IMG/VR virus record: IMGVR_UViG_3300048590_000251
Span: 1-54,038 of that record
Direction: 5' to 3' (one strand)
DNA: 54,038 nucleotides
From: a virus
Taxonomy: Duplodnaviria > Caudoviricetes
The notes under the pieces are model-generated. The model had not been told where the DNA came from. It saw nothing but the letters and a program-made list of their open reading frames with translations, and did no database searches. Positions 9,039 through 45,100 of this stretch are shown here, piece after piece (position 1 is the first letter of the stretch; each line of letters starts with the position of its first letter). A program made the position numbers and the translations under genes.

Positions 9039-9402
9039 ACTTGAGGTTCTGGCAAAGAAACTCGACCGATGGGGTTGGGAGAGGGACCGTGGAACCGCCT
9101 CGCATGATCGGATCGTCACCGACTGGATGGACGCCTTGCAGGATTTCCCGCTGCACGAGGTTCGGGCGGCCTGCGCCGCGGCGATCCGGGACAACCCGAA
9201 CCGGATGCCGAACGAGGGGCATATTCTGGCCGGAATCATGGCAATCCGGCGTGACGCCGTGAGGGAGCGCCCGAAACCCTCAGCACCGCCGGAGCCGAAG
9301 CCCGTCACCGCCGAACAGGCCCGCGCGATCATGGAAAGGGCAGGGTTGTCGATCACCGACGACGGTCGCTTGGTCGGACTCGGGCCGGGAGCGCCGCGAT
9401 GA
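8914..9402 (+). CDS. Putative helicase-loader-like replication protein
   Basis: SD ggagga; overlaps the initiator 3' end; DWMDALQDFP...RMP motif; role inferred from position. Confidence 0.65.
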   Translation: MTDIPAVQQGLPKDRNTGLTLPLSRSLDSRSLDRHRALLAIELEVLAKKLDRWGWERDRGTASHDRIVTDWMDALQDFPLHEVRAACAAAIRDNPNRMPNEGHILAGIMAIRRDAVRERPKPSAPPEPKPVTAEQARAIMERAGLSITDDGRLVGLGPGAPR

Positions 9403-9638
9403 CGGCGCGCTGTGTTCTCTCCGCAGATCGGACTCGCGCCACGATTGCCGGAACGCTTTGGCGCGAAACCATCGGCGTTGATGAGCTTCCGGGTCGCCTG
9501 TCGCTCTATCGACGCCTGCGAGACCGCAAGGATGGCGCCTATGCCGGGTTCTACCGTCCGACCGTCGAGGCGATCGAGAAGGCGATGGCAAGAGCAGGGA
9601 TGACGATAAACCCAGGCTCAAGATCGAAAGGTGTGTGA
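9399..9638 (+). CDS. Hypothetical protein (79 aa)
   Basis: ATGA coupling to the upstream gene. Confidence 0.7.
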   Translation: MTARCVLSADRTRATIAGTLWRETIGVDELPGRLSLYRRLRDRKDGAYAGFYRPTVEAIEKAMARAGMTINPGSRSKGV

Positions 9639-10761
9639 TGTGGTGCTACCTCCCAAAATCGGCCTCAGCCTCTGTGCAGGCGGCGGCGGACTTGACGTGG
9701 GTCTTGGCCTTGCCGAGCCGGGCTTTGCCACCGCCTGCTACGTCGAGATTGAACCCTATCCCCGCCGAACCCTCATCGCAGGGCAGCGCGCCGGGTATCT
9801 CCACGCCGCCCCGATCTGGGACGACCTCAAGCTGTTCAGCGGCACCGCGTGGCGCGGTATCGCCGACACGATCCTCGCCGGATACCCATGCCAGCCGTTT
9901 TCCCAAGCGGGACAGCGCAAAGGGGCCGACGATCCCCGCCACCTTTGGCCGCACGTCGCCCGGATCATCCGCGAAGTGCAGCCCCGCTGGGTGTTCCTCG
10001 AAAACGTCGCGGGACACGTCAGCCTCGGCGCAGAAGCCGTGCTGCGAGACCTATGGCAAATGGGCTGGACGCCTGCGGCTGGCCTATTCTCGGCGCAAGA
10101 AACTGGCGCAACGCATGAAAGGCTCCGCTGGTTCTGCGTGGCCTACCGCGACGACGGAAGCCGGTCTCCACAACCGCAAAGGCGCGAGCGCGACCAGCGG
10201 CGACGGTCTGTCGACGGCAGCGAAGGCATGGGGCACACCGAGAGCCTCGGACGCGGAGAAGGGCGGACCGAACCAGGCATTCGGGGCGGGCGGGACGCCG
10301 CTTCCAGCACAGGCGGCGCAGTGGCCGACGCCAGCGGCGCGCGACCACAAGGGCGAGAACAGCCATGCGCATCTTCTGAACGGGACCGGGCGGCTGCATC
10401 TGGACCAACTGCCGAACGCAGTCGCCCATGCCTGGCACCACCCGGACCAGGTGACACGGACGCATGGGCTGCCGTCATCGACCACGCGCCCGATCTCGCG
10501 CCGGCTGTTTCGTTCGGCGGCATCAAGACTGCCGCAGATCATTTTGCGGCGCTGGTTGCGCAGGGGCGCCTGGCGGAACCGGAGGCTCAATCCCGCCTTC
10601 GTCTCATGGCTGATGGCATGGCCGCCCGGCCACGAACTCTGCGCCTGCTCGGAAACGGCGTTCACCCGCTGGCAGCGGGATATGCGTGGCGCACTCTCGC
10701 AACTGCCCACGGCCTCGGGCGCGTTGATTTGGCAACCGCCGAGGCCACTGATGAACCGTGA
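9631..10761 (+). CDS. C5-cytosine DNA methyltransferase, catalytic polypeptide (motifs I-VIII and X)
   Basis: SLCAGGGG (I), GYPCQPFS (IV), FLENV (VI), HERLRWF (VIII), LRLLGNGV (X). Start 9631 or 9640. Confidence 0.9.
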   Translation: MCDVVLPPKIGLSLCAGGGGLDVGLGLAEPGFATACYVEIEPYPRRTLIAGQRAGYLHAAPIWDDLKLFSGTAWRGIADTILAGYPCQPFSQAGQRKGADDPRHLWPHVARIIREVQPRWVFLENVAGHVSLGAEAVLRDLWQMGWTPAAGLFSAQETGATHERLRWFCVAYRDDGSRSPQPQRRERDQRRRSVDGSEGMGHTESLGRGEGRTEPGIRGGRDAASSTGGAVADASGARPQGREQPCASSERDRAAASGPTAERSRPCLAPPGPGDTDAWAAVIDHAPDLAPAVSFGGIKTAADHFAALVAQGRLAEPEAQSRLRLMADGMAARPRTLRLLGNGVHPLAAGYAWRTLATAHGLGRVDLATAEATDEP

Positions 10762-10798
10762 CCTTGGCAACCTGTTCGATTGGGGGTGGACCACATGA
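9638..10798 (+). CDS. Overlapping +1-frame protein, putative second methyltransferase subunit (target recognition plus motif IX)
   Basis: WPT/WGTP/WPTP repeats, RRLNPAFVSWLMAWPPG; TGATG coupling at the start and ATGA coupling at the end. Confidence 0.7.
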   Translation: MWCYLPKSASASVQAAADLTWVLALPSRALPPPATSRLNPIPAEPSSQGSAPGISTPPRSGTTSSCSAAPRGAVSPTRSSPDTHASRFPKRDSAKGPTIPATFGRTSPGSSAKCSPAGCSSKTSRDTSASAQKPCCETYGKWAGRLRLAYSRRKKLAQRMKGSAGSAWPTATTEAGLHNRKGASATSGDGLSTAAKAWGTPRASDAEKGGPNQAFGAGGTPLPAQAAQWPTPAARDHKGENSHAHLLNGTGRLHLDQLPNAVAHAWHHPDQVTRTHGLPSSTTRPISRRLFRSAASRLPQIILRRWLRRGAWRNRRLNPAFVSWLMAWPPGHELCACSETAFTRWQRDMRGALSQLPTASGALIWQPPRPLMNRDLGNLFDWGWTT

Positions 10799-11382
10799 CC
10801 GCCTACAACCGCTTCGAGGACATTCCTCTTTACCGCTTCGGGCTCATCATGGCGGATCCGCCATGGTCGTTCCAGAATTGGGGTGATCCTTCCGCTCGCG
10901 CTGCTGAAACGCATTACGGCACGATGAGCCTGGAGGACATCCGCGCGCTGCCAGTCGAGCGGATCGCGGCGCCGGATGCCTGGCTGTGGCTCTGGGCGAC
11001 GGGGGCAAACCTGCGGCTGGCGCTTGGCGTCCTCGACGCCTGGGGGTTTACCTACGTCACCTCCGGGCACTGGACCAAGACGCAGAAGGCAAATCCGGCG
11101 CGGCCGCGCATGGGCCTCGGGCACGTCCTGCGGGACTGCGGAGAACCCTATCTGATCGGGCGCATCGGCAGCCCGAAGGTCGAGGACAAGGGCATCCCGA
11201 GCGTCATCATGGCTCCGCGGCGCGAACACTCTCGCAAGCCGGAGGAGGCCTATTCAAACGCCGAGCGCCTCGCTCCGGAAGGATCGTGGATGCTGGACAT
11301 GTTCAGCCGCCAGGGCAGGCCGGGATGGGACTCATTCGGCAACGAAACCGGGAAATTCGAGACAGAGGGAGCGACGGCATGA
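10795..11382 (+). CDS. MT-A70-family adenine methyltransferase
   Basis: IMADPPW, HYGTMSLEDI, LWLWAT, WGFTY, REHSRKPEE, LDMFSR. Confidence 0.92.
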   Translation: MTAYNRFEDIPLYRFGLIMADPPWSFQNWGDPSARAAETHYGTMSLEDIRALPVERIAAPDAWLWLWATGANLRLALGVLDAWGFTYVTSGHWTKTQKANPARPRMGLGHVLRDCGEPYLIGRIGSPKVEDKGIPSVIMAPRREHSRKPEEAYSNAERLAPEGSWMLDMFSRQGRPGWDSFGNETGKFETEGATA

Positions 11383-13797: not shown

Positions 13798-14102
13798 AGC
13801 CGCCAGAAACAGCCGCCGAGTGGCGGGCGTTTGCCGCCAAATGCGTCTGCGCCGATGATCTCCAGATCGCGCCGAACCGCCGGTCTTCTCGCTCGCCGAA
13901 CGGCATCGCCTTCACTGTGCCGTTCGAGTGGCAGCAGAACGGCAGCGTGGTGCGGAAGCACCTCTTCGGAGAGTCCGCAACGCAGCGGGATGCGTCGGGG
14001 ATAATCAACTTGGCCGTCGATTGGATGGCGCGCGAGATGCGCGATCACTTCACCGCCACCCAGCGGGGCGATGTCACTGGACCTGCGGAGGTCTCTCAGT
14101 GA
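13794..14102 (+). CDS. Hypothetical protein between terS and terL
   Basis: GTGA coupling at both ends. Confidence 0.65.
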   Translation: MKPPETAAEWRAFAAKCVCADDLQIAPNRRSSRSPNGIAFTVPFEWQQNGSVVRKHLFGESATQRDASGIINLAVDWMAREMRDHFTATQRGDVTGPAEVSQ

Positions 14103-15694
14103 CCACCGCCACCGCCACCCTCCCCGAGATGGTTCCGACCACGCCGGAAGAGCTGGTGGCCTGCCTGGCGTCCTGGGAGTGGCGGATATTCTCGGGCCAG
14201 ATATACAAGATCATCGTCAAGGACGACGACGATCCCGACGATCCGGGCGTCGTGAAGGCATTCATCCCGAACGCGATGCAGCGCGACCTTCTGATGAAGT
14301 TGCACCACCGCAACGTGGTCCTGAAGGCCCGGCAGCTCGGCTGCACCACTCTGGTCGCGATCCTCTGGCTCGACCACGCGCTTTTCAATGCCAACCAGCG
14401 GTGCGGCATCATCGCCCAGACCCTGCCTCTGGCATCAGCGATCCTGCGCGACAAGGTGAAATTCGCCTACGATCACCTCCCCGAGGGCTTGCGCGCCCGG
14501 ATGCCGACGATCCCGCCGACCAACGAGGAAGAGATCACTTTCGGCCACAACGGCTCCAGCATCGCCGTCGGCACCTCGTTCCGGTCGGGCACATTCCATC
14601 GCCTGCACGTCTCGGAAATGGGCAAGATCGCCGCCACCAGCCCGGCCAAGGCCCGCGAAGTGGTCGCAGGCTCGATCCCGACCGTCCCGTCATCCGGCAT
14701 CGCCATCGTGGAATCGACTGCGGAAGGCCAGAGCGGGGAGTTCTACACCATGGCGAGCCGGGCCGAGGCGCTGGCGCAGCGCGGCCTTCCTCTCGCAGCC
14801 GCCGAATACGCCTTCCACTTCTACGCCTGGTGGTTCTCGGACGAATACGAGGCCGACCCCGAAGGCGTCGAGATCAGTCCCGCCGACCATGCCTATTTCG
14901 CCGATGTCGAGAGCAAGATCGGGCGGCCGCTCAGCCCCCGCAAGCGCGCTTGGTATATCCTTCAGCGCGAGCAGACATTCGGCGGCGATGCCGAGAAGAT
15001 GTGGACAGAGTATCCTTCCACCTCGGCGGAGTGCTGGCAGCGATCCACCGAGGGCGCGTTCCTTGCGCCGCAGCTCGCCCGCGCCCGCGTCGAGGGCCGG
15101 ATCGGCCGGGTTCCGCATCTTCCTGGCGTCCCCGTCAACACCTTCTGGGACATCGGCGCATCGGACGGCACCGGAATCTGGCTGCACCAGCACGTCGCGG
15201 CCGAGAACCGCTTCCTGCGCTACATCGAGGGCTGGGACTCGGGCTACGACGAGTATGTAAGCGTCCTGAATGCCACCGGCTATGTCTGGGGCACCCATTT
15301 CATGCCTCACGATGTCATTCACGAGCGCCAGGGCGTGAATGGAACCGCGTCGCCGCTGTCGATGCTGCGAACCTTGGCGCCATCCTGGAATTTCTACGTC
15401 GTGCCACGGGTCCAGACCTTCGAGGCCGGGATGACCATGCTGCGGCAGACGTTCCCGACCTATCTCTTCGACGCCGAGGGATGCAAGGAGGGGCTGATCC
15501 ACCTCGCCGAGTATCGCAAGGCATGGAATAGCCAGTTAGGGGTCTGGAAGGACACACCGCCGCCGGACAGCCCGCACCGCGAAGCCGCCGACAGTCTGCG
15601 CCAGCACGCGCAGGGATTCCGGCCTGAACTTGTCGGCCGCACGGCCGCAACCGCGCGCCGCAGCCGCCGCGCCCTTGGAGGAATGGTGGTATGA
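14099..15694 (+). CDS. terL: Terminase large subunit
   Basis: LKARQLGCTT Walker A, LHVSE Walker B, IVEST, FWDIG nuclease, PHD, HREAADSLR; GTG at 14099 with SD ggaggt. Confidence 0.93.
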   Translation: MTTATATLPEMVPTTPEELVACLASWEWRIFSGQIYKIIVKDDDDPDDPGVVKAFIPNAMQRDLLMKLHHRNVVLKARQLGCTTLVAILWLDHALFNANQRCGIIAQTLPLASAILRDKVKFAYDHLPEGLRARMPTIPPTNEEEITFGHNGSSIAVGTSFRSGTFHRLHVSEMGKIAATSPAKAREVVAGSIPTVPSSGIAIVESTAEGQSGEFYTMASRAEALAQRGLPLAAAEYAFHFYAWWFSDEYEADPEGVEISPADHAYFADVESKIGRPLSPRKRAWYILQREQTFGGDAEKMWTEYPSTSAECWQRSTEGAFLAPQLARARVEGRIGRVPHLPGVPVNTFWDIGASDGTGIWLHQHVAAENRFLRYIEGWDSGYDEYVSVLNATGYVWGTHFMPHDVIHERQGVNGTASPLSMLRTLAPSWNFYVVPRVQTFEAGMTMLRQTFPTYLFDAEGCKEGLIHLAEYRKAWNSQLGVWKDTPPPDSPHREAADSLRQHAQGFRPELVGRTAATARRSRRALGGMVV

Positions 15695-30741: not shown

Positions 30742-33119
30742 GTTTCTTCGATGGAGCGGTGTCCGGGTTCTTCGCCGGGCGGGATTGGCGCGAAGGCAGA
30801 GATGCCCGCAAGCGTCAGCGTGAACTTGCGGAGATCGAGGAAAACCGACGCGCCGAAGAGTTCGGGTGGCGCCGGGATGAGCAGAAATTCCGCGTCGATA
30901 CCCTCTCCGCCCAGAAACGCGCCCGCGAACAGGCCGAGAAAGACGCCGAGGAAGAGCGAAAGGCGTTTGCCGAAGCCTACGGGGACGCCAAGGCGGCATC
31001 CGAGGGCGATGCGGGCACAGAGGCCGGGCCCGGCGCCCCTGACCCCAATGTCGCGCCGGACACGCCTGCCGGCGAGAGCACGAGCCCGCAATCGGTGCGC
31101 GAGATCACCGCAGGGCGGTCTGCGCCTGCTTATGGCGACGTTGCCCCTCCGAGGCCGCAGAAGCCGCCGGCCATTGTCAGCGATGCCCCGTCGATCGGCG
31201 CCTCTCTCGCGTCCGGGCCGGACGCGCCGCAAATGCCGGCCATGCCCGATATGCCGATCCCGCGACAGGGAGGGAAGGCGCTGCACCCGCCCTATCTCGA
31301 TCCGGCGCCCAACGTGCCGCCGCCGGACGGAAAGACCGGGCGTGTGGTCTTCGCGGAGTCGAGTGGTCTTCCGCAGCCCTATATCGCCAAAGCCCGCGAA
31401 TTTGACGCCTTGCAGGCGTGGCTTGAGCGCGGAGTCAGCACCGATACCGGGCAGCCGCTCAGCGAGACCGAGCGCGCCAGCGCGATTGCACGGCTGGCCG
31501 AGTTCGACCGGACGCTGCGCGGCGCCGCCGACCAGGTGGCAGAGGCAACTGGAGGCAGAAAGAGCGTTGCCCCGTCGCAGGAGATGGCCCACAGACCGCA
31601 GCGCATCGGCGACCGGCCTTCCACCTATGCGCCGGACGCGGCTCCCGCCGCGCCACAACCGCCGCGACCCATACCATCGGACGGGCTTGGCCCCCGTGCC
31701 GCCTTCGCCGAGGGCAACGGACTCGACGCGCAGACGGTCCTGATGGCGCAGGAAGCCGACAGGATGGAGGCCATGTTGCAGGATTCCGCGATGGAACCCA
31801 ACATGCGCAAGACTGTCGAGGCACGCCTCGCCGCACATGAAGAGCGACTCAACGGAGCCGCGCTCGCCGCCGGAATTGCCCCGCCGCGCGATCCGCGCGC
31901 CACGGATGCCGCCGTTCTCGACCAGCGCGCCCCGCCGCCGCAAATGGCCGTGGTGCCTGCCGGGATGCCGTCTCCGCCGCCAGATACCGCGATGGATGCC
32001 GGGTTTGTGCGTCCCGCTCCGGAGGAGAAGGTAAGCCGGGAGGCGCGGATCACCAGGCCCGACCTGCCGATCCCGCGTCCCCGTCCAGCGACCGTGGGCG
32101 GCGTCCGGGTTCCGTTTGGAGAGAAAGGCGCGGTGGACGCGCCGCCGGTGGTGGATGGGCCGCCTGCGGGCCCCGTGAGCAGCGCGCCGCCGGCCGCCGC
32201 CCAGCCCCCGTCCGATCCGGCTGCACCGCAACCCATCGCGCAGACCCCGCCGCCGCCGCAGGCAGCGCCTGACGGCGTTCCGTTGACGGAGCAGGGAACA
32301 CCGGCAACATCGGTCGATGCGGCGCAGGCGACCGCGCCGAAGCGCGATCACCCCGCGAAGAAGGGCGTGATCGGAGAGGGGATGCCGGTCAAGGCCACGC
32401 AGAAGCAACGCGAAAAGGCGGGCAAGGACTTCCTGACCTACTACGCCGAGAAGGGCGCGCCCAGGATCATCGAACACTACCTGAAGACCGGGCAGGTCGA
32501 GAAGGCTGTCGCGTTCCGGGATTTCATCCAGGACGAGCAGGTGAAGGCGGGGATGAAGAGCTGGTCGATGGCAGCTCACGCCGCAGCGATCGGAGATGAC
32601 GAAGGGTTCGTCAAGTATCTGGCCGAAGCCTACAACAGGCGCGGCTATTTCGATGACGGGTTCTCCGTCGTGGCAGAGGACTCCGGCCTGATCCGCGACA
32701 AGAGCGGCAGCGTAACCGGCGCCCAGATCACCTACAAGAAGGACGGCACCGGCGAAATATTCGTGGAGAAGGTCGATTCTCTCGATAACCTCTACGAGCA
32801 GGGACTCTGGATGCTGTCACCGGAGAAGATATTCGAGACAGGGTGGAACGATGTCCAAGCGGGCAGGGCCGCGCGGGCTGAAGTGACCAAGAAACTGGCG
32901 GAGGCGGGTCTCCCCGCCACACGAGCGAAGGCGGTCCTCGACACAATGGAAAAACTCTCGAAGTCGAACCTCAACTTCTCGCAACTGCCAGTGGAGGAAC
33001 AGGTGTCGCAGGCCATCGCCTTCCTTGATAGTGGCGGCGCCACGCCGACACCACCTTCCGCCACCGCATCCGGCGTCGGCGCCAACCCGCAGGGCGGCAG
33101 CCTGCCCTTCTACAACTGA
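30738..33119 (+). CDS. Internal virion/ejection protein, Pro-rich centre
   Basis: GTGA coupling with SD ggagg; lies directly before the giant gene. Confidence 0.75.
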   Translation: MSFFDGAVSGFFAGRDWREGRDARKRQRELAEIEENRRAEEFGWRRDEQKFRVDTLSAQKRAREQAEKDAEEERKAFAEAYGDAKAASEGDAGTEAGPGAPDPNVAPDTPAGESTSPQSVREITAGRSAPAYGDVAPPRPQKPPAIVSDAPSIGASLASGPDAPQMPAMPDMPIPRQGGKALHPPYLDPAPNVPPPDGKTGRVVFAESSGLPQPYIAKAREFDALQAWLERGVSTDTGQPLSETERASAIARLAEFDRTLRGAADQVAEATGGRKSVAPSQEMAHRPQRIGDRPSTYAPDAAPAAPQPPRPIPSDGLGPRAAFAEGNGLDAQTVLMAQEADRMEAMLQDSAMEPNMRKTVEARLAAHEERLNGAALAAGIAPPRDPRATDAAVLDQRAPPPQMAVVPAGMPSPPPDTAMDAGFVRPAPEEKVSREARITRPDLPIPRPRPATVGGVRVPFGEKGAVDAPPVVDGPPAGPVSSAPPAAAQPPSDPAAPQPIAQTPPPPQAAPDGVPLTEQGTPATSVDAAQATAPKRDHPAKKGVIGEGMPVKATQKQREKAGKDFLTYYAEKGAPRIIEHYLKTGQVEKAVAFRDFIQDEQVKAGMKSWSMAAHAAAIGDDEGFVKYLAEAYNRRGYFDDGFSVVAEDSGLIRDKSGSVTGAQITYKKDGTGEIFVEKVDSLDNLYEQGLWMLSPEKIFETGWNDVQAGRAARAEVTKKLAEAGLPATRAKAVLDTMEKLSKSNLNFSQLPVEEQVSQAIAFLDSGGATPTPPSATASGVGANPQGGSLPFYN

Positions 33120-33156
33120 TCCGACCCGTTGCCCTCTCAGACGAAAGAGTGACCCT

Positions 33157-36100
33157 GTGGCCGACAACATCTTCGCCAAGAACCCTCTGGATGCCACCCT
33201 GGAGGGCATGACCGCCCTGAAAACGCCGCCGCAAAGCCCGCGCGCGGCGTTCGAGGCCGCGTCGCGCTCCAGCGGAGTGCCGATCAACATTCTGCTGGCG
33301 GCAGCGGAAGCCTCGGGGGCGAAGACGGGAGAGGATGCCATCCGCGTCGTAGAGGCTGTGTCCGGAGAGTGGGGCGGCAGGATCAGGGCCGGGGAACCGA
33401 TCGAGCGCGTCGTCGGCGCGACCCTTGGTGGCGACGAGGCGGCGACGGCACAGTTTCTGGACCGCGCCCGCGCTCTCGGCCGGGAGTATTACCCCGATCT
33501 GGCGCCGAAGGAGCCGGGTTTCGTCGGCAATGTCGGGCGGGTTCTCGGCGCCTCTCTGGTGCGCGGCGGCGGAATGGCCGCCGAAGGTGTTGCCAATGCG
33601 GCGGCCTCCGCCATGGACAGCCAGCGCGCCATCCTCGGTGGGATCGGCGATGCCGCCCGCAAGGCCGCCGATGCCCTCGGGGTCAAGGACTTCGGCGGCT
33701 ACGTTGCCGACGAACTCGGCGTCACCACAGCCGCGGAATGGGCAGACCGGGGCGCCAGAGAGGCCGCTGATCGGGCGCAGGATGCCGGACGCTTCGTCGG
33801 CGACGCCGCCGCAGACAAATCGGACAGCATCCGGGAAGGTCTGTCCGACCGCGCCAGGCAGGCAATGGCGGGCAGCACCCCTGACGGGGTGATCTACGAC
33901 CCGCGGACATGGAGTCTCGGCGAGAACGCATCGTTGGAGGGCTACACCTATCACGCCGTCGATGTGCTGGGATCCCTGATCCCCGTCATTCTCGCCGGGA
34001 TCGCCACGGGCGGTATCGGAGCGGCGGCAGTCGGCGCCGCCATGGGCGGCGGCGAGGGCTCGCAGACCGCGCGGCAAGTGGTCGATGAGGCTTACAAGAA
34101 CGGCACCCTCGACCAATCGCCGATGTTCAGGCGTCTGGTCGCGGAAGGCGCCAGCCCGGACGATGCCTATGACCGAGTGCGCCGCGAGGCAGCCAAGGCC
34201 GGGACGCTGTTCCAGGCCCCGGTGAGCGCCTTCGGCGGATACGCCACCGCCTCGATCGTCAAGGGAACGGTCGGAAAGGCCGTCGGCGGTGGGATCATGC
34301 GCCGCGCCATTGCCTCCGGCGTGGCCTCGGCCGCCGAGGAGGGCTTGCAGGAGGCGGCGGAAACCGTCTCCGCAAACCTTGGCATCAAGGCCACGACTGG
34401 CCTGAAAATCAACATCGCCGACGGCACGTTCGGCGATTTCGTCTTGGGCGCCATCGGCGGCGCCGGTCCGGGCGCGGTCGGTGGGGCGCTTGGGCGGGGT
34501 CATGCCGGTGATCCGTCCAGGCGGCCGCCTGTCGCGGCACCCCCCCAGGAACCACCGGAGCCGGAGCCGGATGGGGGCATTCCCGCGGCAGGCGGTCAAC
34601 AACCCGTTCCAGCGGCGCCCGACCTCGCGCCCGAGCCGTCGCCGCTCCGGGATGCCGCCCGCGCCGCACCGCCGCCGGCCGCCGGAGATATCGCGCCGGG
34701 GTCGCGCGTCATCCTGAAATCCTCCGACAGCGCGCCTCCCGGCGAGCGTGTCCCCGACATGACCGGAACCTTTGTCGGCGAAAAGGGCCGCATGGTCCTG
34801 ATTGCCGACGAGGACGGAGAGGTTGTCGAGATTCCGCGCAACGCTTTCGATCTGGGAGCAGTGTCGATGCAGGCACTTGCGCTAGATCCGATGCTGCCGG
34901 AAACAGACGCGCCGGCCGATCCGGAGGCTCCGCCGCAGCCAGATATGGCTCAAGCGCCCCAGCCTGACCTTCAGCCGCCCGCGCCGGCCGCAGAGGTGCC
35001 GCCGCCGCAAGAAATTCCGCCGGCCGTAGATGTGTCTCCCGCTCCGGACGTCCCCGAGGATGTGGTGCGCCGCCGCTTGCGCATGATCGAGGATATCGCC
35101 AAACGCGACGGATGGACCGCCGATCTGATCGCCCAGCGAGACGCAGCCCGTGAGGCAGTCGCCAGAATTGGCGCGTCCATGGGCGTGGGTCCGGAACCCA
35201 GGCCACCGAACCCAGAGACGGAGGATACAGGCGATGTGGTTGAACCTGGACGAGCTTCAGAGGGACAGGGTGATCACGGCGTGGGAAGCGACCGCGCTGC
35301 GCCAGTGGCTCGACTCCCCGACGCCGGAAGTCCTGCCGAAGGAATGCCCGCTGTCAGAGATCCTGAACCGGATCCGCCTCCATCAATGGACCCCGGACCG
35401 CGCGCACTGACTCAGGAGACTGCGGAGAAGAAGACGGTCACGCCCGATCTGGTGACGGTTCGGGATGTCTACGGCAAGAGACACCGCGTGAGAAAGCCGG
35501 ATCTGGACGGCGACCGGGCCATGCTGCCCACGTTCAACGCCAATGGCGAAAGGACGAATGGCACGCTGCTGCACCGCGACAACATCGACCCGGACGGGTC
35601 CGGGGTGCGCGCCACCTACGCATCCGCGCCTTACATCGCCAAGGAAAATGACCGGCCGTTCGCGACCGAGGCGGCGGCGAAGGCCGCTGTGCGACACGTC
35701 AATCAGGATTTGGCGGATTTCAAAATCAAGCCGGTCAATGGCGGCTTTGTCGCGGTGCGCAAGAAGGCAAAACCGGACGCGGAGACGGCGCCAGAGACCC
35801 CGGATGCCCTTTCGATCGAGGATATCCGCACCAAGGCGGCGATCCTGCGCGGCTGGACCGGCGACAAGCCGCCCGTGGTCGACGGCGTGCTGTTTTCCCA
35901 CGATGTGAAGGCGGGCGGGTATACCTTCTCCCGCAAGCACAAGGAGAAGGTCGGGGCGGCGCTCAAGGTGGGTGCGAAGCCCGCGGCAGGCGAACCCCTG
36001 ACGGGCGAGATCATCACCCCGGAAGATGACGCGGAAGCGCGGCGCAAGGCGGCCACTTCGGTCGGCATCGAGCTGACCGATGCGCCGTTGCCGGTGCGCG

Positions 36101-39100
36101 CGCCGTGGTGGACCGACGCCAGCCCCGAGGTTCGGGCGGCGATCCTCGACGCGGCAGGCCCGCAGGCCACCAGAGACGCGCGCCAGACCCACGGATGGGA
36201 AAACCTGAGCGATGCCACCCGCAGGGCGCTCCTTGACGCGCACGGCCGCCTCTATCGCGCGGGCGAGATCACCAATGTCGGCACCATCGAGGCGCCACGC
36301 TACGCGCTGGCGGGCGCGAAGCCTGACGGCAGCCCGGCCTTGCCGGACAAGGACGCCGCGCGGATCTGGAACGCCACCCCGCCAGCGCGACGCGAAGCCA
36401 TCGTTGTCGAAGCCGGATGGGTGGTGAGCTCCGGCGTGAACAAGGGCCATGCCAGCCCGGTGGGCCGCAAGATCGCGCAGCGAACATGGAAGGAGCACCC
36501 GGAGAACATCGCATCGGTGCTGAGCGCGGCGATGAACAGGCTCGGGATGCGTTCGGCTCTCGAAGACACGATTTCCGGGACCAACGCGGACACCGAATCG
36601 GCATCTCAGGAAAATCCCGCAACGACCGACCAGAGCGAACCGACGCAAACCGCCGCGTCTCCCGCTGTGCCGACCCCGGCGCAGGCCGAGGCCGGCAACT
36701 ACCGCATGAAGCACGTCAGCTTTCAGGGCCTCGACATCACCATCGAGACCGAGAAAGGCCAGGAGCGGCGCGGCAAGGACAAGGACGGCGAGGAATGGTC
36801 GGTCACGATGCCGGCCGATTATGGCTACATCAAGCGCACCGAGGGGGCCGACGGCGATCACGTCGACGCCTATCTCGGCGACATGGCCGACAGTGATTTC
36901 GTGCTGATCGTCAATCAGGTCGATGCCGACACCGGCGCCTTCGATGAACACAAGGTCATCCTCGGGGCGATGGGCCGCAATGCGGCGCTGGACATCTACC
37001 GCGGCGGGTTCTCGGATGGCCGCGCCAATGACCGGATCGGCTCTTTCACCGCGACCAACATCGCCGGGTTCAAGGCATGGCTGGCAGCGGGGCCGCACAA
37101 GGCCGCGACGCAGAATCTGGACTTCCCGTTCAAGAAGAAGGCCGCCGATACGGATCGGACTCAATCGACGCCGATCATTTCCGATGACAAGCCAGCAGCC
37201 GATCCCGACACCGCCGAACAGGCCGCGATTCGCGCCCGCATCGAGAAGGAAGAGAAGGCCAACCCGGATCCCAAGCCGGTCATCGACTTCCGCGACATGA
37301 CCCAAGGGGTCGAGGGCCTGGCGCTGATCCGCGCCCTGCGCCTCGCCGGGGATGACGCCGCAACCCGGCAGCGGACGGCGAATGAGTGGGTGCATGGGCA
37401 ATTCAAGCGCACCGGCATGGAGCATCTGGTCGTTCTCGACAGGGAGGGCAAACTGTTGGTGGCGGCCGAGGGATCGGTCAACCATGTCGGGTTCCCGAAC
37501 TGGCTGAGCAATTACGCCAAGACCAAGATGATCTCCTACAATATCCACAACCACCCCTCCAACAGGGGCCCGAGCCCGGGCGACCTGGCGGCGGCGGCCT
37601 CCGGTTTCCGACCGGTCCATATCATCGGTGCGGACAAGGCGCTGCGCGGCTACAGCCCGACCCCGACCTTCATGGAGGGAGCGCCCAAGAGCATCTTCGC
37701 CTATGATGCCATTCGGGAAATTATTGACACGATCGACGGCGCCGTCGTCGGCATCATTCAGGCCCAGATCACCAATGGCGCCGTCAAGATAGATGACGCC
37801 AACGTCCTGCACAGCCATGCTGTTGCCAGGGCGATGGCCGAGGCCGGGGCGCTGGAGATCACCGGCAATGACATGGCGGCCGAAATCGACGCCGCCGGCA
37901 TCAATCAGGGAGAGATCAATGAGCGAGTCGCAGAAATACTTGCCCCATGGCTTCGACGGACCGGACAGCCTGTCGCCAAAGTCGGAGATCAAGGCGCTGC
38001 TGAACCGGCTGAAAGCGATACCGGCACCGGACGGCGTGGTGAAGAGGCGGATACGGCAGACCGAGAAGATGCTGGGCGCGGCGACGCTCAAGGGCGGGTT
38101 CCGACCCCCGCCGCGGTAAAGCCGGCCAAGGCCGGTTCGGCTGCCGTCCAGTTGAAAAACTGGACCGGGCTGGAGGTCAACGCCTACGACGACGAGACTT
38201 CGGATGATGGCCGAAATTCCAAGGTCAAGAACGAGTGGAAGAGCGACGCCACCCGATTTGGCCGGGCCATTGCGGCGATCCTGAAAGATGCCGGGTTCAC
38301 CGCGCCGCTTCCGGGCGGCCGGGCGCAAAGGGGCAAGACACCGAAGCCGATCAACCCGGTATCGTGGAATGCCAGCGGCATCGCCGGGTCTGGTGAGGTC
38401 AGCGTTTCGCTCGACGGCCCGGATGGGTTCGGCGTCTATATCCACATGGATGCCGATGGTCGGTCCATGGGCGGGGAAAGCCCGGTCCGCATCTACTGGC
38501 GTGTTCGGAAGAACACCGACTCGCCCTACGGCGGCGAAATGAACCAGTGGGTTCAGGACAAGCAGATTGCCGCTGGCGACATCACTGACATGATCCTGAA
38601 AGCGATCGAGCGCCGGGCGGCACAGCCCGAGGCGGCAAAGCCAGAGCCGACTCCGCAGCCCATGACCGAAGACCCGAAGATCCCTCGCGGATACGAGTTG
38701 ACCTATATCAAGCGCGCGACCGGACCAGAGGCCCGAGCCAACGGCTTCACTCCGGGAGAGCCGCACAAGGCGGTCATCAGGCGCGACCAGCCCTACGGCG
38801 TCTACGATTTTGTTGGAAAGACCCGTGCGGATGCCATCGCAGGCGCTCTGAGACTGGCAATGAAGCCCGCGACCCGCCCGACGCCCCAGGTGCCGCCGAT
38901 GGCCGGAATGACCCCGATGGGGGCCAAGCCGGAGCCCGACGCGACCAAAAAGCCGTCAGATGTTGAGGCCGAACAGGCGGAGACAGATCCGGGCACTGTC
39001 CCCACTTCTTCGCAAACATCTCCCCCAACAAATGCCGATAATCCGGCGATTATCCCGATCACGGAGCCGCCGAAGAAGAGCGGCGCCCTGTCCAACCTGT

Positions 39101-42100
39101 CGCAGGCCAAGCAGGACCGGGCCGCTCTGCTGCGCGCCAGGATCGCCGACCGGCTCAAGAACCAGTTGAACACCGGCGTTGACCCGGCGCTGCTGGTCGA
39201 TGCGATCGAACTGGCCGGCATCTACATCGAATCCGGCTTCCGCAAATTCCGCGACGTGCTGAAAGCCGTCGCCGCCGACATGGGCCTGACCGAGGTCGAT
39301 GCCGAGCCGTGGGTGCGCGCCGGCTACAACGAGGCCCGCGACGGCCTCGAACTGGCGGATGAAGATGTCTCCGACATGGACGACAGCAAGGCCGTGCTGG
39401 CGCATGTCCGCGACATCAGGAAAGCCGCGAAAGAAGGTTTGGAAAAGCCGGTAGACGCACCTATATCTGACGCACCAGCCACCGAGGGTGAACCCGATGA
39501 GCCGCAGACAAGAACTGGTCGAGATGGCCGAGGAAATGAAGGCCGAGAGTCAGGCGCTGATCGACAAGGAAATCTCGGAACCGGGGAGCCGGATGGAAAC
39601 CGAGGCGATCGAGACCTGGAAGAACAACAACCCGACACTCTACCGGGTGATGAAGGAACGCGGCGCACTGGAGGCGACGGCACACGTCGTGGTCCATCGG
39701 ATACTGGAGCAGGCCAAGCGGATGACCAAAGCGGGGATGCCGCCGTCGGAAGCCCGGACGGAAGCCTACCGCGACCAGATGATGCTGGACTAGAAGCGCA
39801 AAAGCCCGACGAACCGGCATCGCCGGCGCGCTCGAACTACCGCATTGATGATCCCGAGGCTCTGGTCGGCGGAACGCCGAAGCGCCGCTTCGCGCGCAAC
39901 CGTGAAGCCATCGAAGCCTATCAGAGCATCAGGGACGAAGCCCGCGAGCCTACCCCGCAGGAACTGGATGCCATGGCATCCTATATCGGCTGGGGATCGT
40001 TCGGGCAGCAACTCTTTCAGGGAACCTGGACCCGGCCGCGGTTCGTGGACGGCTGGAAATCCGAGAACGAATGGCTGCGTCAGCACTTGGGCAAGGACGA
40101 GTGGGAAGACGCCCAGCGCAGCATCATCAATGCGCATTATACCGACCCGCCGACGGTCAGGGCAATGTGGGGCATGGTCGAGCGACTCGGCTTCAAGGGT
40201 GGCAGGGTGCTGGAGCCCTCCATGGGAATCGGCAACTTCTTCGGCATGATGCCCGCGCAACTGGCCGCCAATTCGCAGCTCACCGGAATCGAACTGGACT
40301 CGCTGACCGGCGGCATGGCGAAACTGCTCTATCCGCGCGCTGCCGTGTCCGTGATGGGCTATCAGGACAGCCGGACGCCTGACAACTTCTACGATCTCGT
40401 GATCGGCAACTGGCCCTTCGCCAATATCGAGGTGCCGGATCGGCGCTACATGAAGCTGAAGCCGAGCCTGCACGACTACTTCTTCCTCAAGGCGCTCGAC
40501 CAGGTGCGGCCCGGCGGCCTCGTGGTCGGCATCACCTCCGCCTTCACCATGGACAAGAAGGCCACCAATATCCGGGCGGCACTCGCCCGCCGCGCGGATC
40601 TTGTCGCCACCTTCCGCCTGCCAAGCGGTGCGTTCGAGAAATATGCCGGAACCAGCGTCGTCACCGACATCATCATCCTGCAAAAGCGGCAAGAGCCGAT
40701 CCTCGACATTTCCGGGGTTACGTGGGTTCGGACAGCAGAGGTGGACACCCCGGCAGGAACGCCGGTGACGGTCAACCAGACCTATGCCGACAACCCGGAT
40801 AAGGTTCTCGGCACCCTCAATTTCGGCACCGGATCGACCTATGGCGCCCCGAGCATGATCGTGGATCGACCGGCCGATCTCCTGGAGCGGCTGGAGGCGC
40901 TGCCGGCGACGCTGCCGGAAGGGGTCTACACCGCCACCCAGCGGGGCAAGGAGCCGCGGTTCATCTCAAACCACACGACCGCGCAGCAAAACAGCGTGAC
41001 CGAGGTCAAGGGTGTTCTCTACCAGGTCCAAGGCGAGCGGCTGGTCCGGTTCGAGGACGTGGCGAAATACAAGGTGAAGGACGCCAAGAAGACCGCAGCG
41101 CGCGAGGCCGAGATCATCGCCTTCATCGACATGCGCGAGAAGTTGGGCGCGGTCATCGACGCCGACCGGGCCGGCACCGAGGATGCCGACACCAAGCGCA
41201 AGGCGCTACGCAAAGCCTTCGATGCCTTCCGCAAGGCGCACGGGAATATCGCCGACTCGCTGGCGCTGTCGCTCCTGCTTCGGGCCAAAGACCCCGGCGC
41301 CCCGATGGTTCAGGCGCTGGAGGCCAAAGACGGCACGCCTGCGGCAATCCTGTCCCGGCCCACCATTCGGGCGCCCTCGACGCTGGAAAACCCCAGCATC
41401 CGTGACGCCTTCGTGATTGCGCGCAACGAGTCCGTGGCCTTCGACCTCGAACGGGTCGCAGCGCTTGCCAAGGCGAAGCCCGAAGAGGTGATCGCGGATC
41501 TGGCCGGATCCGGGGCAATTTATCGCACTCCCGGTGGCGCCTATGAGGTCGCCGATGCCTACCTGTCGGGGAACGTTCGGCAGAAGTTGCGGGAGGCAAA
41601 GGCCGCTGCCGAGGCTGGTGAGGATATGGCGGCTTCGATCTCGGCGCTGGAAAAAGTCCTGCCGCCGTTCCGGCCCTATTACGACATCGAGGCCAAACTT
41701 GGCGCGATGTGGATCCCCGATCAGGTCTATATGGACTTCCTGACCGAGAAACTCGGAATGTCGCCGATCCAGAGGCAGAACAGCGAAGTGCGCTGGTCAG
41801 CGGGCGCATGGCGGCCGCGCCTCGACCCGTCGCTCAACCACAAGCCGGAAGCGTCCTCGGTCGGTCACTCAGATGTCCGCATCGGCAGCTTCATCAGCCA
41901 CGCGATGAACAACCAGACCATCATCGTGAAATACCGGGACAACGAAGGGGAACACAAGGACGAGAAGGCGAGCGAGGAAGCCAACGCCAAGGCGGCCAAG
42001 CTGCGCGAGGACTTCTCCGAATGGGTCTGGTCCGATCCCGAGCGGCGCCACGACCTTGAACTGGCCTATAACGAGCAGATGAACGCCATCGCCACCCCGC

Positions 42101-45100
42101 AATTCGACGGGTCGTTCCTCGATTTTCAGGGCATGGCCCTGCAACGCGGCGATCAGGAGTTCAACCTGCGCCGGCACCAGGCCAATGCGATCTGGCGCGG
42201 CATCCTCAACGGGCGTGGCATCTATGCCCATGAGGTCGGCACCGGCAAGACCATCACCATGGCCGGCATCGCCGTCGAGAGCCGCCGCTACGGGAAGGCC
42301 AGAAAGCCGCTGGTCGTGGCGCATAACGCCAACTCCAAGGCTGTCGCCAACGAAATGCAGGAGACCTATCCGGGTGGGAAGTTCCTCTACATCGACAACC
42401 TGGCCCCCGGCGAAATCGAGGCCGAGATGCGCCGCATCGCCACCGACGATTGGGATGCGGTCATCATCCCGCACTCGCTGCTGGACCGGATGGCGTTGAG
42501 CCAGAAAACCCTCGAGGCTCTGGCCGCAAAGGAAATCGAGGCGCTGGAAGCCGAAGCTCTTGCCGCCGCCGCAGAGGATGGAGCCGACCTCACCCTTGAG
42601 GACATGGACGATCCGGACGCCATGAAGAAGGTTCGATCCCCGACCGCAAAGCAACTGGTCAAGGCGCGCGAGAACATCATCGCCTCGATCCAGAAGGCCG
42701 CGCTGCGCGCATCGAAAGACGGTGCCGTGCCATTCGAGGATCTTGGCATCGACATGCTGATCGTGGACGAGAGCCACGAGTTCAAGAAGCCCTCGATCGC
42801 CACGCGGATGACCGTGAAGGGCTTGAACAAGGCCACGTCGGCGCGCTCGATCCAGTTGAAATTCCTGTCGGATTATATCCGCGGCCAGAACAACGGACGC
42901 GGCGTCCACGTCTTCACTGGCACTCCGATCACCAACACCCTGACCGAAATCTACCATCAGATGCGCTATGTGATGGAAGACGTGATGGAGCAGAGCAACA
43001 TCTCGGCCTGGGACGGGTTCTTCAACACCTTCGCCGCCTCCGTGCCCGACATCGAGCTGACCTCGGCCGGCGATTACCAGAGTGTCGAGCGTCTTTCGTC
43101 CTTCGTGAACGTGCCCGAACTGCGCCGGATGGCCGGGCAATACATGGACATCGTGTTCGCCGACGACATGCCGGAAATGCAGCCACGGCGCGCGTCGAGC
43201 GGCAAGACGCTTCTCGACAGCGACCTCACCAAGGCTGACCGGGACGAATTGCGCAACGGGCGCCAGGAGAACCCCGAAGGCCGCCCCTACAAGGAGGTGA
43301 TCCACGACATCGCCGACATGGAGCCGGATCAGCGCCGCATCCTCGATCAATCCATTCGCTTCGCCAGGCAGTTTCGCGTCCTGTCGGGCAGGGATAAGAT
43401 TGACGTCATGCGCCGCGGTGGGCCTGATGCCCCGATCGTGTTCGATGCCGTGCCGTCCAGGGCCGGGCTCGATATCCGACTCCACGAGATCGACGCCGAG
43501 GACTCGCCGACCAGCAAGGCCAACCGCGCGGTGCGCAACGTCACCCAGATCTACAATGAGGACAAGCACACCACTCAGGTCATCTTCATGGACGAGGGCT
43601 ATTCGGACTCGGTAACGAGGGTGAAGAAGAAAGACGGTGAAGTCGTCAGCCGCGAGAAGGTCGAGAAGTTCAACCTTGCCAAGGATATCGTGGCAAAACT
43701 GGTGGCGGCCGGGATCCCCGAGGCTGAGATCGCCATTGTCAACAAGGATGTGTCGAAGGAACAGCGCGCCAAGATTTCCGAGCAGATGAACAACCTGCAA
43801 ACCCGCGTCGTGATCGGCCTGACCTCCACTCTTGGCGTCGGCGTGAACATGCAGAAATACCTGCGGGCCATGCACCACCTCGACGCGCCCTGGATGCCTG
43901 GCGATCTGGAGCAGCGCAACGGACGCGGCCAGCGTCAGGGCAACGAGTGGAACACGGTTCTGGAGTATCGCTATCTGACGGAAGGGCTGGACGGCCGCCG
44001 CTGGCAGGTTCTCACCATCAAGGACCGCTTCATCAAGGCATTCCTGAAAGCCGAGGATGGCGTGAGGGTGATCGAGGGCGACGCCACTGATGACGCCACC
44101 AGTATGGGCGCCGACGATCTGGCCGCAACGCTGTCCGAGGCGGCCGGCGATCCGCGCATCTTTCAGGTCAAGAAGTTGGAAAAGGACATCGAGCGCCTGC
44201 AACGGCGCGAACGGCTGCACGTCGATGGCGTCGCCGATGCCAGGCGCAAGGTCAAGAAGTTGCGCGATTCCATCCCGCGAACCGAGGATAGTGTCGCCGA
44301 CCTGGAGCGAGCGACAGAAGAAGTCGCGATGGCGCGCGAAAAGGGCTTTACCGCGACCATCGACGGAAAGACATTCGACAGTCGCGACGATGCGGCAAAA
44401 GCCATGGATGCGCTTGTCCAGCCGATCGTGGCGCGCGGGGGGCACAGCCTCTCGACAGAGTGGCGGGATATCCCGGCATCGGTGCAGGGCTTCCAGATCC
44501 AGATCAAGAGATCGAACCTGATGCGAGACGGTCAGGTCCTGGTCGATTTCCGCGTCAAATACGATGGCGTTGGCGATTATGACACCATGGGGGCGCCGAG
44601 CGTCGCATCCGCAGAGGCGGTGCTCCGCAAGATCGCGGATCGGCTGGAGAGGGCCCGCACCCAACTGGCAGAGGACCGCGCCAGTGCAGACCGCATCGAG
44701 AAAGCCGCCGCCGCTCCGTTCCAGCAAGCCGAAGCCCTGAAAAAGAAGAAGGTTCAGGTTGAAGCCCTGCTTCAGGATCTCAAGGATAATCCCGTTGCGC
44801 CGCCGTCGTGGTTGCGACAGGGCGCTCCGATCGACAGCGTGATCCACGTTGACAAAAAACCCCGCGCCGTGACCGGACATCGCTGGACCAAGGATGGGTG
44901 GTTCGTCAGCACGGAAGCGGGAGACGTTCCGTATCTCGACGCCCGAAGCGAGACGGGGGTTCCGCTCTATCAGGAACGCCCCTTCGAGCCGCCGCAGATC
45001 GAGGAAGGATCGAAGCTCCGGACCGGCGACGAGCGGGATGAAGCGGAGATGTCGGAACCGAGGCCCCCACCCGTCACATCCCTGACGGGTGATGAGCTTG

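Follow-up and report, generated by a model that had tools for sequence, protein, structure and literature searches.

A candidate two-polypeptide C5 cytosine methyltransferase encoded in two fully overlapping reading frames of phage DNA

C5 cytosine methyltransferases can be divided over two polypeptides. In M.EcoHK31I (YGGCCR), motif IX is carried by a beta chain that is read within the alpha gene in a different frame, and activity requires alpha as well as beta (PMC2836561, PMC3404938); as published, this beta is a small internal open reading frame (ORF) with its own internal start, and the target-recognition domain (TRD) is held by alpha. M.AquI is described as split between a catalytic part (motifs I-VIII) and a variable region with motif IX, the small subunit also carrying motif X (PMC3404938). 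XLalphas and ALEX of the mammalian GNAS locus are reported as two mutually binding proteins made from overlapping frames of one transcript (PMC1186735). Here, we analyse a locus on IMG/VR record IMGVR_UViG_3300048590_000251 (Duplodnaviria; Caudoviricetes), a 54,038-nt (54 kb) stretch of viral DNA estimated to be 88% complete, with a guanine-cytosine (GC) content of 64.6%, which is hereafter called the window. Two plus-strand frames of the window, frame A encoding a chain that we call alpha and the +1 frame (frame B) encoding beta, are simultaneously open from 9631 to 10798. Based on sequence and structural models, we put a probability of about 0.72 on the reading that alpha and beta form a C5 methyltransferase split over two polypeptides, similar in kind to M.EcoHK31I but with an interleaved overlap over the full length of the genes.

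The likeness to M.EcoHK31I is one of layout, drawn from its published description, and lies in an alpha chain with motifs I-VIII plus X as well as a beta chain in an alternative frame with a motif-IX-like segment; the initial annotation of the window, made from its sequence, had named this precedent in terms that agree with the published accounts (PMC2836561, PMC3404938). Unlike in M.EcoHK31I, however, beta matches alpha in length, has its start 2 nt from that of alpha and extends beyond the alpha stop. In addition, variable WxTP modules lie on beta, both chains contain long passengers, and two segments are dual-coded. The M.AquI subunit genes are adjacent. The genes analysed here overlap fully, and motif X is on alpha rather than on the smaller partner. 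XLalphas and ALEX differ in that they belong to a eukaryotic signalling locus, have unrelated structures and do not make up a single enzyme fold between them. In PHROGs, alpha (phrog_363) and beta (phrog_27243/phrog_1008) are filed as separate, unrelated families, with no mention of shared DNA. No description of this arrangement was found in literature searches of main texts, which left out supplements, REBASE and the original M.EcoHK31I paper.

The alpha ORF (frame A, 9640-10761, plus strand) comprises 373 aa from GTG 9640 and reads through the C5 methyltransferase motifs I-VIII, a passenger linker, a PPGPGD..W / PDLAPA segment and motif X. The beta ORF (frame B, 9638-10798, plus strand; 386 aa) has a passenger N-terminal part, a basic helix, the WxTP modules, a motif-IX-like LNP segment, and a conserved C-terminal helix and tail. 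Frame A is stop-free from 9610 to 10761, with GTG codons at 9631, 9640 and 9643, and frame B from 9485 to 10798, with an ATG at 9638. Both starts are packed into a TGATGTG junction (9636-9642, plus strand), in which TGA ends the upstream ORF (9399-9638), ATG 9638 is the beta start and GTG 9640 the alpha start. A Shine-Dalgarno-like GAAAGG (9626-9631, plus strand) lies upstream of both starts and is a plausible shared site. The initial annotation had already recorded much of this layout. The frame-A motifs with a low-complexity stretch in the place of the TRD and motif IX, and the open +1 frame with its WPT-type repeats and motif-IX-like RRLNPAFVSWLMAWPPGH, are all present in the sequence. So are the couplings of the +1 frame to both neighbours, namely the upstream stop overlapping the frame-B ATG (TGATG, 9636-9640) and the frame-B stop overlapping the ATG of the downstream MT-A70 gene (ATGA, 10795-10798). 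Its proposal that one Shine-Dalgarno sequence could serve ATG 9638 and GTG 9640 is plausible for GAAAGG. For frame A, the ATG of relatives corresponds to GTG 9640 rather than to GTG 9631. A plot of GC content at third codon positions (GC3) by frame, made on the window only, was too noisy for the frames to be assigned.

Homologous DNA was collected in three rounds, of which the first gave 15 loci of named genomes (Paracoccus, Celeribacter, Neotabrizicola, Aliisedimentitalea, Rhizobium, Bradyrhizobium, Neorhizobium and several metagenome-assembled genomes), the second 14 viral loci and the third 77 of the 299 viral loci encoding a relative, 6 of them from contigs sampled before. Loci cut by a contig end (L009, L016, L020, L052, L064, L104) or with an N-domain or beta that found no match at 1e-4 (L094, L096, L100) were set aside. 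Both frames are open throughout in the window, in 12/12 complete genome loci, in 12/12 complete viral loci of the second round and in 68 of the 71 complete viral loci of the third (69 on inspection). Clustering of the 93 complete conforming loci by alpha identity gives 72 clusters at 90% and 25 at 70%. In every locus with matches, the N-domain of alpha is in frame with its C-terminal or motif-X part, and motif X lies on the same ORF as the N-domain in 12/12 genome loci, 12/12 viral loci and 68/71 of the further viral loci that are complete. The beta part is in the +1 frame relative to alpha in all loci with matches except L015 and L103, in which the offset is 2 and the gene is disrupted. At 25 of 25 loci inspected by eye, a frame-B ATG, GTG or TTG overlaps the upstream stop (xTGA) or stands right after an in-frame stop, and a frame-A ATG or GTG lies 2-5 nt from this start; a purine-rich site of the GGAG/GAGG type precedes the starts in most homologous loci inspected.

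The layout recurs in about 100 independent assemblies, down to approximately 35-40% protein identity. Carriers include a complete chromosome, that of Aliisedimentitalea scapharcae KCTC 42119 (L008), as well as Paracoccus litorisediminis NBRC 112902 and the cultured Synechococcus phage Yong-M2-251 (OM868082.1, L031:1107-2246). In this phage, frame A (379 aa) is annotated as cytosine-specific DNA methyltransferase and the 371-aa frame B (1114-2229) has no feature; the matching stretch of the related phage Ssp-JY39 is labelled 'hypothetical protein'. A tblastn search of cultured phages returned 2 records only, both Synechococcus phages.

Openness of both frames is very unlikely to have arisen by chance. 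When synonymous codons were permuted per locus with the protein of the coding frame retained, frame B over the A-coded N-domain (stop-free at 13/13 loci) gave shuffle P values of 0.009-0.57 per locus with a product of 1.9e-20, and frame A over the B-coded middle (also 13/13) gave 0.001-0.37 with a product of 3.2e-19, products that assume independent loci despite shared ancestry and are therefore overstated. Synonymous sites are, however, near saturation across the loci, as judged by codon-position diversity. Other genes of the window provide a further yardstick: in the +1 frame of its long high-GC3 ORFs, taken as real genes, stops occur at a density of approximately 2.4 per 100 codons (the largest ORF has 131 in 5410 codons). 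For frame A, the +1 frame is stop-free over 383 codons and the +2 frame has 10 stops, so there is no general avoidance of stop trinucleotides. Long shadow ORFs of the window lie in the -1 frame of such ORFs. They could be a partial cause of the openness of frame A over frame-B coding; as -1 frames, they cannot account for the openness of frame B over frame-A coding. One example, which served as a control, has 508 codons (14005-15531, plus strand) and lies inside a 611-codon high-GC3 ORF (13859-15694, plus strand), and further shadow ORFs of 200-356 codons occur elsewhere in the window. The single stop-free frame of 5410 codons at 32887-49119 (plus strand; GC3 0.79) would encode a giant phage protein of about 5400 aa.

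Protein-level constraint was separated by frame in 23 loci by fixing the proteins of one frame, redrawing synonymous codons and comparing the identity of the other frame with the simulation. Excess identity was 0.06-0.07 in passengers, a residue of shared ancestry, and 0.23-0.50 in coding segments, and five plus-strand segments (S1-S5) were distinguished. S1 (9670-10050; excess A 0.371, B 0.064) codes in frame A only; its beta reading is a passenger, open but with an unconserved protein, and the third positions of frame A are the most variable (approximately 0.53). S2 (10051-10140; A 0.363, B 0.229) is dual-coded, with a helix and strand up to motif VIII in alpha (GLFSAQETGATHERLRWFCVAY) and WAGRLRLAYSRRKKLAQR in beta. 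S3 (10139-10345, tested over 10236-10345; A 0.069, B 0.502) codes in frame B only and contains the modules WPTA (10139), WGTP (10229) and WPTP (10322), and frame-A position 1, which is frame-B position 3, is the most variable. S4 (10420-10500; A 0.283, B 0.062) codes in frame A only, for the PPGPGDTDAW ... PDLAPA part of alpha. S5 (10576-10722; A 0.270, B 0.278) is again dual-coded, with RRLNPAFVSWLMAWPPGHELCACSETAFTRWQRDMRGALSQLPTASG in beta and RLMADGMAARPRTLRLLGNGVHPLAAGYAWRTLATAHGLG (motif X) in alpha, and all three codon positions are conserved (0.14-0.33). Codon-position diversity phased on frame A agrees with this test. By these substitution patterns, each protein is composed of functional and passenger segments, and two short stretches are truly dual-coded.

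Alpha matches Pfam PF00145 (4.6e-28, 99 bits; cut-off 22) over residues 12-184, covering positions 4-175 only of the 324-position profile, and phrog_363 (DNA methyltransferase; 1.3e-52) over residues 12-359, i.e., the N-domain plus motif X. Within NCBIfam it hit solely the dcm superfamily model, below threshold (65 bits; cut-off 100.65). Among 24 alpha sequences, G14, G17, P83-C84-Q85, E121-N122-V123, G338-N339 and V341 are invariant and G340 is nearly so; P268, P270 and W276 are invariant or nearly so. We take the GxG loop binding S-adenosylmethionine (AdoMet) to be motif I, PCQ with the catalytic Cys motif IV and ENV motif VI, and the consensus of motif X to be a GN[AG]V helix. After the Pfam match, alpha continues with an R/G/E/D low-complexity stretch, followed by PPGPGDTDAW, PDLAPA and LLGNGVHPLAAGYAWRTL (motif X), with LLGNGV of motif X near the C terminus. 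Between motifs VIII and X, alpha has neither a TRD nor motif IX; a disordered, unconstrained linker is found there instead. This passenger linker (10213-10440, plus strand) is the frame-A reading of the beta modules, of low complexity and predicted to be disordered. When alpha was modelled alone, the predicted local distance difference test (pLDDT) score was about 90 for the N-domain and below 50 for residues 192-267, and the C-terminal helices were partly confident. Foldseek placed M.HaeIII first (1dct_A; E 4.8e-12, 171 columns) and M.HhaI next. Alpha alone is thus modelled as a C5 methyltransferase catalytic domain with a disordered linker.

Along beta, the modules WPTA, WGTP and WPTP are followed by RRLNPAFVSWLMAWPPGH (nt 10580-10633) and then by the conserved tail, and the motif-IX-like RRLNPxFVEWLMGWP likewise lies in frame B. 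The WxTP modules, of which there are 3-6 per homologue (21/22 loci), are likely the DNA-recognition part. For the further idea of the initial annotation, that the enzyme is possibly multispecific, no support was obtained; the analysis shows only this variation in module number. Beta has no Pfam match at E<=1 and no NCBIfam match. It matches phrog_27243 (unknown function; 3.5e-39) and, with its middle and C-terminal part, phrog_1008 (DNA methyltransferase; 1.8e-15). Residues 169-387 have 1172 relatives in the 90% library and 3364 clusters in the 50% library, each at E<=1e-3; among the matches listed from the 90% library, only 2 of 120 beta relatives have a precomputed PF00145 domain. Many database entries are long frame-B ORFs that start 'MTWCYLP...', i.e., the +1 reading of the methyltransferase N-domain. 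Modelled alone with AlphaFold2, beta reached a pLDDT of 66 and a predicted template modelling (pTM) score of 0.30. Foldseek of this model against PDB found no fold match (best E 4.8), and phmmer against PDB sequences gave a chance-level match only (E 0.031, cellobiose 2-epimerase).

The C terminus of beta in homologues has Q-[LM]-x-[LM]-F-like ends (QLALF, QMSLF, QLTLF), which resemble the pentapeptide that binds the beta clamp and for which a bacterial consensus QL(S/D)LF is given (PMC9690074). Q[LM]x[LM]F occurs within the last 14 residues of 23 of 77 beta tails, and a looser pattern in 56 of 77. The tail of the window's own beta (DLGNLFDWGWTT; 10723-10795) contains neither the strict nor the loose pattern.

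A complex of alpha with beta 125-386 was predicted with a separate alignment for each chain. Its interaction prediction score from aligned errors (ipSAE) was 0.92, 0.90 and 0.90, the best of 3 controls scoring 0.00; among solved complexes, 58 of 80 attained the mark used for calibration, as did 2 of 110 mismatched pairs, a calibration that holds only roughly with own alignments. Contact agreement between runs was at least 61% and the partner pLDDT at least 57. The prediction speaks for binding between alpha and beta. In the model, beta LNPAFVSWLMA (317-327) sits on motif X of alpha (L334, L337, H342-L344), on L286-P288 and on P267, and the packing of beta 317-327 on alpha 334-344 provides the contacts of least error. 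The C-terminal helix of beta (F342-L353) is placed on alpha L24, A47, Y53 and Y348. Beta 125-161 contacts alpha 127-160, the two being read from one shared DNA stretch coinciding with S2, and the 311-367 / 313-367 interface pair is likewise read from one shared stretch, coinciding with S5. Alpha 260-270 and 285-296 (S4) also fall within the predicted interface. As modelled, the interface would use exactly the segments that are constrained.

Two variations of the overlap were seen among the homologues. A segment of about 100 nt (window 10500-10575), read as VSFGGIKTAADHFAALVAQGRLAEPEAQS in alpha and as RPISRRLFRSAASRLPQIILRRWLRRGAW in beta, is present in Rhodobacterales-type loci and absent in both frames from Rhizobium-type loci; both stretches are in the predicted interface. 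At two loci, an HNH endonuclease-like gene is inserted in the C-terminal overlap in the third plus-strand frame (L022:3084-3518, 144 aa; L023:3339-3761, 140 aa). Both HNH ORFs contain the EHVHHKNGNKRDNRIENL motif and are identical to each other at 81 of 140 residues, and no NCBIfam match was found for the HNH ORF. Alpha, which has a motif X of its own, stops where the HNH gene starts (ATGA), and past the insert there is a remnant of the former alpha C terminus. Frame B is open across all 144 and 140 HNH codons and then continues into the conserved tail 'WQRDMRGALSQLPTASG...'; the shuffle P for this openness is 0.002 for L022 and 0.12 for L023, with 6 and 2 stops in the third frame, respectively.

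According to the split-enzyme reading, two same-strand genes whose frames are offset by one base would both be translated over their full length from one mRNA. Their starts, 2 nt apart, would lie behind one Shine-Dalgarno site, and the beta start would also be coupled to the stop of the upstream gene. The Rossmann-type catalytic domain (motifs I-VIII) would come from alpha, as would the PPGP/PDLAPA segment and the motif X helix that follow a disordered linker. Beta would begin with about 125 passenger residues and go on to a basic helix and three WxTP modules, with the motif-IX-like LNPxFVEWLMGWP segment and a C-terminal helix after them. The heterodimer would constitute one C5 cytosine methyltransferase in which beta fills the place of the small domain (TRD and motif IX) that alpha lacks. 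Each passenger would be the other frame's reading of a functional segment of the partner and may stay stop-free because ribosomes must cross it; the two short segments at 10051-10140 and 10576-10722 would yield a functional peptide in both frames. We infer from the sequence that both frames are translated and that both chains are needed. The initial annotation had likewise proposed a two-polypeptide enzyme with a full-length overlap, which is well supported by the open frames, the constraint, the 5' starts and the predicted complex and held up in all computational tests that were run. Several checks that it named were run: both frames are kept open among homologues, the +1 frame is stop-free in nearly all complete loci, where it had set frequent stops over the WPT/LNP region against its own proposal, and prediction of the complex returned an ipSAE of 0.90 against 0.00 for the best control.

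A more elaborate form of this proposal is doubtful as a whole, and we put it forward tentatively. It holds that the heterodimer is obligate, that both chains are translated side by side from a single mRNA, with one ribosome-binding site and competing starts 2 nt apart, that the overlap spans the full 1.1-1.5 kb with long passengers that are stop-free but under no other constraint, and that dual-coded DNA specifies the peptides that touch each other. The conserved Q-L-x-L-F-like end of beta would, in addition, bind the enzyme to the sliding clamp of the host, and methylation of phage DNA would as a result take place at the replication fork.

Several observations weigh against the split-enzyme reading. 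The shuffle products are inflated, as stated above, and some loci depart from the layout: the gene is disrupted in L015 and L103, frame B of L049 meets a stop after about 45 codons with the rest kept, and Rhizobium lusitanum P1-7 (L012:2470-2530) has a G8 run in motif I with a 1-nt shift. In this last locus, the two 5' ends are exchanged, with the alpha body following the beta-type ATG start and the beta body following the alpha-type start, and the shift is natural or else a sequencing error in the homopolymer. Beta folds poorly alone. Its interpretation as 'TRD plus motif IX' rests on its position, a motif consensus and the model of the complex, the searches against PDB having assigned it no fold, and the score of the complex may partly reflect the model's memory of single-chain C5 methyltransferase folds. 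Judged from sequence, about 125 unconstrained passenger residues in beta and about 90 in alpha would be costly and unusual. By analogy with M.EcoHK31I, in which beta uses an internal start, such a start would seem simpler, and some beta relatives are fused to alpha N-domains, as detailed below, so fused forms can at any rate arise in assemblies or gene calls.

The internal start can be pursued as an alternative in its own right, in which two polypeptides are made as well, beta starts near 10000-10115, as gene callers assume, and the N-domain openness has some other cause. In favour of it, M.EcoHK31I beta starts internally and is described as tolerating alternative internal starts (PMC2836561), gene callers have produced many frame-B proteins of 212-300 aa, and L049 keeps the rest of beta despite its early stop. 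However, the Met at which the gene caller starts P0001 (ATG 10115) alternates with Thr in homologues, corresponding to a synonymous CAT/CAC change of a His codon in frame A, and it lies 3' of the constrained, interface-forming beta segment 125-161. The homologue alignments show no conserved internal Met or other start ahead of this segment, nor any further internal start that is conserved. In nearly all loci, the open stretch of frame B includes its 5' end, where it often begins directly behind an in-frame stop, and no other cause of this is apparent. We regard an internal beta start as unlikely. Programmed frameshifting is, in our view, slightly more improbable still. It would have ribosomes start in frame A, slip by +1 near motif VIII and perhaps by -1 back before motif X, yielding one chain in canonical order (I-VIII, WxTP modules, IX, X), alone or beside alpha and beta. 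The functional segments indeed follow each other along the DNA in the order A, B, A, which is the order of a single-chain C5 methyltransferase. Moreover, local phmmer searches with the window's frame-A and frame-B segments against 257 fetched beta relatives found 7 in-frame alpha-N/beta-C fusions, two of them with a junction close to motif VIII, and one further B-to-A fusion with a deletion. Yet the junctions differ, the alpha N-domain being matched to residue 88, 112, 158, 167, 170, 174 or 184, so the seven fusions resemble occasional indels or errors of assembly. S2 has no conserved slippery heptamer or +1 site of the stop-codon type, and the sole XXXYYYZ heptamer in the window's gene, CCCAAAA at 9652-9658, is absent from homologues. 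This heptamer reads C_CCA_AAA in frame-B phase, is of the -1 slippery type, stands five codons past the beta start and is probably a coincidence. Frameshifting would require neither frame B to be open over the N-domain nor frame A over the middle, and both are kept open; the beta tail past the would-be return point is conserved and is open even through the HNH gene.

Finally, the double openness might be an artefact or a sign of decay, whether through frameshifts introduced by sequencing, through a pseudogene or through shadow ORFs that arise by chance when DNA is GC-rich, and long shadow ORFs are indeed common in the window (e.g., the 508 codons at 14005-15531) with its GC content of 64.6%. 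We consider this extremely improbable. The same layout is found in about 100 independent assemblies, including the complete chromosome and the cultured phage, the typical shadows of the window are -1 and not +1 frames, and both frames show constraint at the protein level. Sequencing error and pseudogene were rejected on these three grounds of recurrence, +1 rather than -1 relation, and constraint in both frames.

The gene that follows beta (10795-11382, plus strand) encodes an MT-A70 family methyltransferase of the N6-adenine type (Pfam PF05063, 5.3e-30), and the neighbourhood is that of a phage replication module, with DUF1376 upstream. This context fits an orphan anti-restriction methyltransferase, and the split enzyme would probably methylate phage DNA and thereby evade host restriction, like the adjacent MT-A70 enzyme.

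If the obligate-heterodimer reading is true, the overlap would rank with the longest that are conserved on one strand in phages or bacteria. It is conserved over thousands of database proteins and about 100 loci, yet half-annotated at best: long same-strand overlaps are normally dismissed by annotation pipelines, and beta is elsewhere a 'hypothetical protein' or cut to an internal Met. For methylome annotation this matters in that frame A, taken by itself, would be predicted to be an enzyme that lacks a recognition domain. A natural split C5 methyltransferase could also serve the engineering of targeted methylation, as M.EcoHK31I has been used (PMC2836561). The locus would offer a clean natural system for the study of DNA sharing, in which selection keeps a frame open purely for the passage of ribosomes beside segments of real dual coding, and the oddity of M.EcoHK31I would be widened to a widespread phage family.

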